Positions 35,161 through 35,380 of a DNA stretch of 64,000 bases are shown in pieces. A model generated the notes under the pieces. It worked only from the letters and a program-made list of their open reading frames with translations. It did not search any database and was not told where the DNA came from. Location: positions 1-64,000 of IMG/VR virus record IMGVR_UViG_3300014208_000024. One strand, written 5' to 3'. Numbering within the stretch: position 1 is the first letter of the stretch; every line of letters begins with the position of its first letter. This DNA comes from a virus. Taxonomy: Duplodnaviria > Caudoviricetes. Made by a program: the position numbers and the translations under genes.

Positions 35161-35194
35161 AACAAAAAACCCAGACTCTTTCGAAATCTGGGTG
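35161..35194 (-). terminator. Attenuator terminator of the His/Asn/Thr tRNA array
   Basis: CCCAGA-TTTCGAAAGAG-TCTGGG-TTTTTT; leader ATCTGGGTG (35238-35246) can pair with CACCCAGAT. Confidence 0.82.
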
Positions 35195-35215
35195 CTTGTT
35201 TTTGTTTTATATGAT

Positions 35216-35305
35216 TTAACTCATAATAGACATATCACACCCAGATAAACATGTGGTATTATGTTTATGTGTATTCGTATTAATATGTATATTACTTGTT
35301 CTCAT
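35216..35305 (-). CDS. Leader peptide MRTSNIHINTNTHKHNTTCLSGCDMSIMS
   Basis: 3 His (all CAT), 4 Asn, 5 Thr (ACA/ACG/ACC). Confidence 0.83.
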   Translation of the reverse strand: MRTSNIHINTNTHKHNTTCLSGCDMSIMS

Positions 35306-35353
35306 TTCTTACTTTATTTTAAATAGTTAAAAAAATTGTTTATTTACCAATTT

Positions 35354-35380
35354 CTACGCAAATATATAAAAAAAGTTACA
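35354..35380 (-). promoter_or_regulatory. TGTAAC-N16-CGTAG promoter with overlapping TATATTTG
   Basis: Recurring motif. Confidence 0.7.

Follow-up and report, generated by a model that had tools for sequence, protein, structure and literature searches.

An element on the minus strand of a groundwater phage genome, here called unit d, most likely acts as a trp/his-style ribosome-mediated (leader-peptide) transcription attenuator gating a phage tRNA operon, judging from features predicted in silico. It lies in the first 64 kb (the window) of the IMG/VR virus record IMGVR_UViG_3300014208_000024 (372,283 bp, rated complete, from a groundwater metagenome; label G000), and positions below are those of the window or, beyond it, of G000. 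The whole genome has 46 tRNA genes by ARAGORN, and the 35 that fall in the window are without exception minus-strand genes, so the attenuator must be read in that orientation. Unit d combines a suitably placed short open reading frame (ORF), a run of cognate codons, an intrinsic terminator, and a mutually exclusive antiterminator, and the phage probably makes Thr, Asn, and His tRNAs only when ribosomes read those codons slowly. The first-pass annotation had proposed a His/Asn/Thr attenuator with a link to a permuted tRNA-His(ATG); its core is strongly supported in silico by five paralogues, by orthologues, and by covariation between antiterminator and terminator, whereas the His(ATG) link did not hold.

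Leader, terminator, and antiterminator of unit d

The leader ORF (35216..35305, minus) comprises 29 codons and a TAA stop (35218-35216), has the same length in the orthologue on a related phage contig (G001), and encodes the peptide MRTSNIHINTNTHKHNTTCLSGCDMSIMS. Its regulatory run, codons 3-18 (35252..35299, minus), holds 12 Thr, Asn, or His codons in 16, the remainder being Ser, Ile, Ile, and Lys. Threonine is encoded by ACA (three times), ACG, and ACC, histidine by CAT in three of three cases, as had been pointed out earlier, and asparagine by AAT (four times). These three amino acids make up 14.7% of the codons in the long ORFs of the phage, and among 3416 ORFs of 20-45 codons in the six frames of the 372-kb genome, the unit d leader alone has at least 10 such codons in 16 consecutive ones. 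The leader starts with ATG at 35305, 49 nt past the promoter motif, in an A-rich context without a Shine-Dalgarno (SD) motif, as at the phage’s own gene starts. A second in-frame TAA follows two codons past the first, and all six leaders of the family described below end in TAA.

The intrinsic terminator (35159..35193, minus; stem 35193-35169) begins 21 nt past the leader TAA and is predicted to fold into a 10-bp stem with a 5-nt loop and a U6-G-U4 tail (TTTTTTGTTTT), the stem being lengthened by an A-tract upstream. Its 5′ arm is also the 3′ strand of the antiterminator (segment 3, 35186..35195, minus), and the 5′ strand (segment 2, AUCUGGGUGU; 35237..35246, minus) is located in leader codons 20-23. 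The 9-bp antiterminator pairing noted in the first-pass annotation is exact (plus-strand cacccagat at 35238-35246 and atctgggtg at 35186-35194) and gains a tenth, G-U pair. The duplex of segments 2 and 3 reaches -17.0 kcal/mol, and none of 13 non-family terminators (0/13) pairs with segment 2 as well. The 171-nt unit d RNA as a whole folds at -40.3 kcal/mol compared to -22.8 ± 3.7 kcal/mol in shuffled sequences (z = -4.7). An additional 8-bp hairpin, AUAAACAU/AUGUUUAU, appears within the codon run (35245..35268, minus) in both minimum free energy (MFE) and co-transcriptional folds and is a candidate 1:2 pause or anti-antiterminator hairpin.

Upstream of the leader, a recurrent genome motif (35356..35397, minus) has the appearance of a promoter, with an A-run, CTTG, and then TGTAAC-T-run ... 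TATATTTGCGTA. The motif (TGTAAC, T-run, TTTGCGTA) occurs in approximately 13-20 copies in the genome and is found upstream of five of the six tRNA-operon leaders, with a variant in unit i. The TAnnTTTG element inside it resembles the -7 box of Bacteroidota. Between motif and ATG, the 5′ untranslated region (35306..35355, minus) carries a conserved A/T-rich element (ACTATTTAAAATAAAG) immediately before the start codon, which is kept in the six units and their orthologues. Centred on the unit d promoter is also a 23-nt inverted repeat (35360-35406, 87% complementary), which may be an operator or mere AT-rich symmetry.

The G000 genome encodes two sigma-70-family genes (99255-99449 and 343187-343390), while no gene for the beta' subunit of RNA polymerase (RNAP) was detectable in it. 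The tRNA-operon units are therefore probably transcribed by the host core RNAP, which supports an attenuator because this enzyme responds to intrinsic terminators, and the TGTAAC...TTTGCGTA promoter is probably read by the host core RNAP together with a phage sigma factor. SD-like motifs precede 3 of 202 long phage ORFs, and positions -13..-10 are about 70% A. We take these SD-less, A-rich starts and the TAnnTTTG-like promoter element to suggest a Bacteroidota-type host. The GC content is 25-36% in the window and 28% in the phage genome, and among GenBank phages there was no close cultured relative, the best helicase matches being approximately 30% identical and belonging to T4-like cyanophages.

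Paralogous and orthologous units

A BLAST search of the region against the genome returned a partial second match (51519-51549) within another promoter-leader-terminator unit (unit e, at 51713), which has a 37-codon ORF containing PMGGYPCAADADYGCGTGM and is located before an operon of Asp, Gly, Tyr, Met, Pro, and Ala tRNAs. Following the shared promoter motif through the genome yielded a family of six such units. The unit at 4193 (leader core QSRFQVVFFVQQVQ) stands before Gln, Phe, Arg(ACG), and Val tRNAs; that at 24305 (LSLCLCLLL) before five Leu and one Cys tRNAs; that at 31734 (VIIKKSISIKIKK) before four Lys and two Ile-type tRNAs, for which the GAU and UAU loops were confirmed; and that at 72949 (WSSRRRSSSR) before Ser, Arg(UCU/CCU), and Trp tRNAs. 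Unit d, at 35305, with its Thr/Asn/His leader, stands before two Asn, two His, and three Thr tRNAs. Even the Arg codons fit the isoacceptors behind each leader, being CGC/CGT in the leader at 4193 and AGG/AGA in that at 72949.

In a 6 × 6 matrix of the fraction of leader codons readable by each operon, the diagonal is 0.37-0.50 and the off-diagonal values are ≤ 0.21, and the true leader-operon assignment is the unique best of 720 permutations. The six terminators differ in sequence, and in an RNAduplex matrix the best partner of each leader is the terminator arm of its own unit, the identity again being the unique best of 720. Where the promoter motif precedes protein genes, an amber-suppressor tRNA, or a lone tRNA-Met, there is no leader-terminator unit. 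ARAGORN called no tRNA-Glu in the whole of G000, and no leader is rich in Glu codons.

Amber-reading tRNAs (anticodon CUA) are encoded at 74251-74324 and 75335-75409 (minus). The first lies directly behind a promoter motif with no leader or attenuator and serves as a natural control because it has no sense codon to sense.

The unit d leader could in principle be a chance ORF beside the ordinary terminator of the upstream gene (36253-35444), as the AT-rich DNA and the A-rich minus strand favour Asn, Thr, His, Lys, and Ile codons, and terminator-like hairpins in the 6-kb region are not above the shuffled expectation. We consider this highly improbable. The codon content is unique among the 3416 short ORFs, a promoter motif is located between the upstream gene and the leader ORF, and codons and pairing are also matched in five paralogues and nine orthologous units, including unit e, the leader of which is built of GC-rich Pro, Gly, and Ala codons despite the 28%-GC genome. 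A chance ORF is already contradicted by these family-level statistics.

Orthologues were found on three contigs. A promoter-motif scan identified two related phage contigs in one sample, G001 (228,886 bp) and G002 (90,754 bp), and a metagenome scan anchored on a 130-aa neighbour recovered G001 again together with a 1.7-kb contig (L171) that holds the Lys/Ile unit without unit d. All six units have orthologues in G001, two in G002, and the Lys/Ile unit in L171, which amounts to nine units beyond the six of G000. Further scans added little: a viral-contig scan for the terminator tail and downstream motif gave more than 100 unrelated single matches, with contig L013 alone relevant; a protein-anchored search with the 269-aa upstream gene gave no relatives; a scan with a 17-mer specific to unit d gave 35 matches, with the terminator arm in G001 only; and a scan for the motif of the cassette with Y-like RNAs (described below) was likewise positive in G001 only.

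The orthologues in G001, G002, and L171 preserve frame, length, and codon set. The 147-nt unit d and its 29-codon G001 orthologue align without indels; codons 6-26 (with few substitutions) and the terminator are conserved, while codons 2-5, codons 27-29, and the spacer past the stop have diverged. The core changes from unit d to G001 are AAT to AAC, ACA to ACC, CAT to AAC, ACC to AAT, and AAT to AAG, such that four of the five changed codons within codons 6-18 still encode Thr, Asn, or His and the fifth is Lys (AAG); in the leader as a whole, seven in-set codons changed, of which four are still in-set. When the six G000-G001 pairs are pooled, 67 of 76 in-set codons remain in-set, as do 11 of the 20 that changed compared to 5.0 expected (P = 0.002).

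In each of the 15 units, a terminator is accompanied by a cognate antiterminator duplex (mean -15.5 kcal/mol versus -8.6 ± 2.9 kcal/mol for non-family pairs). Compensatory changes are seen in the Lys/Ile unit, where segments 2 and 3 read GAATGGG/CCCATTC, GGCTGGG/CCCAGC, and GAAGGAG/CTCCTTC in three genomes, and the residues encoded at segment 2 (NEWD, SGWE, and DEGD) are not conserved. Pairing was assessed by RNAduplex here, since a MAFFT alignment of the three Lys/Ile units left the diverged terminators unaligned.

Proposed switching and its codon resolution

We infer that the leader ORF is translated, and likewise the direction of the switch and its physiological signal. Transcription would start at the promoter motif near 35356-35397, with a ribosome translating the 29-codon leader. 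Slow decoding of Thr, Asn, or His codons within codons 3 to ~15 would stall this ribosome upstream of segment 2, and could result from scarce charged tRNA, for instance early in infection, in a host with a tRNA pool unsuited to a 28%-GC phage, or following tRNA damage. In the stalled case, segment 2 (35246-35237) would pair with nascent segment 3 (35195-35186), the terminator would be blocked, and RNA polymerase would enter the YrlA-like RNA and Asn, His, and Thr tRNA genes. With fast decoding, the ribosome would pass segment 2, reach the TAA (35218-35216), and sit between segments 2 and 3, leaving segment 3 to pair with 35178-35169 and transcription to end at the U-tract. In this way, the supply of tRNA would feed back negatively on the transcription of tRNA genes.

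Folds of truncated transcripts, cut just before the terminator 3′ arm, pair the leader 3′ part with the terminator 5′ arm in every unit. With a modelled footprint of -15 to +14, a ribosome placed on the early or middle regulatory codons lets the unit d antiterminator form, whereas one on the last two abolishes it. The spacing between stop codon and terminator arm is confined to 21-34 nt over the units (exactly 26 nt in three), which would be enough to keep the terminator free while a ribosome sits on the stop codon. As isolated helices, the antiterminator (-11.6 kcal/mol) and the terminator hairpin (-13.3 kcal/mol) are comparable in strength.

Several observations weigh against this mechanism. 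Wherever the ribosome is placed in the models, the equilibrium favours the terminator fold over the antiterminator fold by 2-7 kcal/mol, so that any switch would have to be kinetic, which is also how classical attenuators work. Stalling on the last two regulatory codons (ACC, ACA) would cause the ribosome to mask segment 2 and favour termination, and a ribosome at the stop codon does not cover segment 2, such that blocking would have to come from steric hindrance. The folding models point weakly to a role for the 1:2 hairpin (35268-35245); in G001, one of its pairs is changed in a compensatory manner (U:A to C:G) and another is mismatched. Unit d has a single orthologue, in G001, in which the stems are conserved rather than covarying, with two one-sided compatible changes; the terminator stem columns are invariant except for one G-U to G-C change. 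Substitutions in the leaders are in excess neither at third positions nor among synonymous changes (41/37/44 by codon position; P = 0.33), with differences inflated for the e/e′ pair, which was compared without allowing for a one-codon indel; this absence of excess fits a peptide without a function of its own. Finally, the conserved, boxA-like GTTCTTTAAAATATTG motif right behind the terminator (35138..35153, minus) could instead be an internal promoter that bypasses the attenuator. Directly behind their terminators, units a, b, d, and e share this motif, which also precedes Y-like RNAs; the minus-strand sites of GTTCTTTAAAATATTG(AAAAT) are 35138-35153, 34812-34833, 24131-24153, and 51510-51525. 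It resembles the boxA antitermination elements of ribosomal RNA (rrn) operons.

Part of this evidence would also fit a switch that is functional and translation-dependent but responds to the general capacity for translation or coupling, or fixes the fraction of read-through, and does not report the supply of specific tRNAs. The terminator is always favoured in the equilibrium folds, there is no clear pause hairpin, the unit d leader also holds Ile, Lys, Ser, and Cys codons, and the leader peptides lack protein-like purifying selection. Such a generic sensor is nonetheless unlikely, as it leaves unexplained the six operon-matched leaders (1 of 720), the tendency of changed codons to stay in-set (P = 0.002), and the rare codons that match isoacceptors (P = 0.003; see below).

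It is also quite unlikely that unit d is a stand-alone mini-gene for a micropeptide or small RNA, with the tRNAs and Y-like RNAs expressed from promoters of their own such as the downstream GTTCTTTAAAATATTGAAAAT motif. That motif does lie behind four of the six terminators and ahead of internal Y-like units, and weak sigma-70-like matches overlap it, at the frequency expected by chance in AT-rich DNA. However, it is unlike the recurrent promoter of the phage, and we take its resemblance to rrn boxA to count against a promoter role. A mini-gene also gives no reason for the codon match to the downstream tRNAs or for the conserved, covarying pairing of the ORF 3′ part with the terminator arm. A sigma-70 promoter call overlapping the U-tract was rejected, as such calls arise at chance frequency. 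No other copy of the phage promoter motif was found downstream of unit d before 31798.

Ribosome-mediated attenuation of the tRNA operon may be resolved below the level of the amino acid. The first-pass annotation had matched the leader Thr codons ACA, ACG, and ACC to array tRNAs Thr TGT, CGT, and GGT, and both sets were recovered by codon count and ARAGORN. The match is real, and the G001 orthologue also holds ACA, ACG, and ACC, with ACC at a different codon, but for unit d alone it is not significant (synonymous resampling, full coverage of the operon’s five anticodons, P = 0.205). Taken together, the six leaders cover 31 of 32 anticodons versus 26.8 expected by the same resampling (P = 0.003). 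The phage Thr codon usage is 53% ACA, 34% ACT, 8% ACC, and 5% ACG, and the low usage of ACC and ACG makes their presence in the unit d leader worth noting. The isoacceptor-level refinement is thus weakly supported. Synonymous codon choice is known to affect attenuator sensitivity (PMC1183508).

Whether the phage runs a codon-resolved demand sensor, with every sense-codon tRNA operon behind its own leader that samples nearly all of its isoacceptors, is an even call. If so, a given tRNA block would be expressed solely under slow decoding of the codons that it serves; the ribosome would test the readability of codons, and the outcome would decide the making of tRNAs for exactly those codons. Expression of tRNA genes would then be feedback-controlled one codon set at a time, the first instance in which tRNA genes regulate themselves through ribosome-mediated attenuation. 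The sorting of tRNA genes by amino acid into separate operons in large phages would be accounted for, and there would be a handle on the purpose of phage tRNAs (codon compensation or replacement of tRNAs lost to host defence), as the inducing signal could be read from the leaders. The units, modular, ~150 nt long, and available in six versions, would also be attractive codon-specific sensors.

The grouping of operons, with Thr/Asn/His beside Lys/Ile, may mirror tRNA sets that are destroyed together by host anticodon-stem nucleases. Cleavage targets of the PARIS effector AriB are the tRNAs Lys(UUU), Thr(UGU), Asn(GUU), and Thr(CGU) and probably, to a minor extent, His(GUG) (PMC12409363). Taken as a set, these are similar to the contents of the Thr/Asn/His operon and the adjacent Lys/Ile operon combined, although the link is speculative. 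If the grouping has this origin, the attenuators would be damage-triggered replacement switches.

Known systems, the downstream array, and neighbouring features

Attenuators generally set an intrinsic terminator against an alternative antiterminator, with the outcome determined by the position at which the ribosome stalls (PMC1183508). Like the thrL (Thr and Ile) and ilvL (Ile/Leu/Val) attenuators, unit d has a short translated leader, as predicted, with a codon run for several amino acids. Unlike in thrL and ilvL, the targets are tRNA genes and Y-like RNAs rather than biosynthetic enzymes, such that slow decoding would be corrected by making the decoder; the stop codon is past segment 2 rather than between segments 1 and 2; and the system is phage-encoded, with six copies dividing the code among operons. 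The Rfam Thr_leader model (RF00506) scored unit d at 20.5 bits compared to a gathering score of 55 (E 0.31), and no other leader family was closer.

Leader-peptide attenuation is textbook knowledge, and to our knowledge its described targets are genes of amino-acid supply and one synthetase operon. The latter, the pheST (pheM leader) operon for phenylalanyl-tRNA synthetase of E. coli, is alike in that leader-peptide attenuation acts on a component of the translation apparatus. That leader, however, controls a synthetase for one amino acid, whereas unit d would control tRNAs for several amino acids and isoacceptors. In full-text literature searches, no relevant report emerged of tRNA genes or operons, whether of phages or otherwise, under leader-peptide attenuation.

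T-box elements similarly use a terminator/antiterminator switch to report tRNA status and control the supply of charged tRNA, but they bind uncharged tRNA and need no translation, whereas unit d has an ORF and not a specifier loop. No T-box match was found in Rfam at E ≤ 1 in 30500-36500, and no riboswitch family scored above threshold. As in rrn boxA antitermination, a GTTCTTTAAAA-type motif opens a long, structured, untranslated RNA operon; this is a resemblance only, and here, unlike in rrn operons, the motif is repeated inside operons before each Y-like RNA.

The first product transcribed past the terminator would be a YrlA-like (permuted tRNA-like) RNA (34932..35126, minus; Rfam YrlA 25 bits, E 0.007). 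A sister copy lies at 34669-34784 (minus; 44.9 bits, E 1e-8). Both scores are under the gathering score of 69 for YrlA (RF02553), but the alignments span the full model, and the element at 34932-35126 carries T-arm, acceptor-like stem, and D-arm in the permuted order of YrlA. Its 5′ half is nearly identical to the 5′ half of the tRNA-Asn at 34013.

The first-pass annotation had read this region (34921-35135) as a permuted tRNA-His(ATG) matching the CAT codons of the leader. This candidate was rejected because the element is a full-length YrlA match, a TROVE/Ro60 partner gene is encoded in the genome, and the loop is not kept (CTATGAT in G000, CTTGATA in the G001 orthologue). CAT is the major His codon of the phage (67%), and ordinary His(GTG) tRNAs already read it. 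The TROVE/Ro60 gene is located at 83831-84688 in a 515-aa ORF and scores over the Pfam cut-off. The phage thus carries Ro60 and multiple Y-like RNAs, which apparently share a transcript with tRNAs.

The rest of the putatively controlled array (33139..34913, minus; ARAGORN, Rfam, and Pfam) encodes, in order, Asn(gtt), the second YrlA-like RNA, an HNH gene, Asn(gtt), His(gtg), tRNA(tta), His(gtg), Thr(ggt), Thr(cgt), and Thr(tgt). HNH endonuclease genes (HTH and HNH domains) at 34017-34586 and 32374-33177 (minus) are located between operon tRNA genes, an insertion also seen in other phage tRNA arrays.

Inside the Thr/His/Asn operon there is also an ochre-reading tRNA with anticodon UUA (33634-33706, minus; Rfam tRNA 54.7 bits), and ARAGORN found no counterpart in the G001 operon. 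The amber-reading CUA tRNAs are hints of TAG recoding in late genes, and a phage-encoded fragment of a class-I release factor (Pfam RF-1 and PCRF; 39069-39617, minus) bears on the suppressor tRNAs and on a possible recoding of stop codons. An odd tRNA-like call with a two-base anticodon (76998-77067) is located behind a promoter and a protein gene.

In the region 21490-21667 (minus), a further copy of the phage promoter motif is followed by a structured non-coding RNA of ~150 nt with a strong terminator (GUUCCCCCG...CGGGGG-U run). This RNA is kept in G002 (L135).

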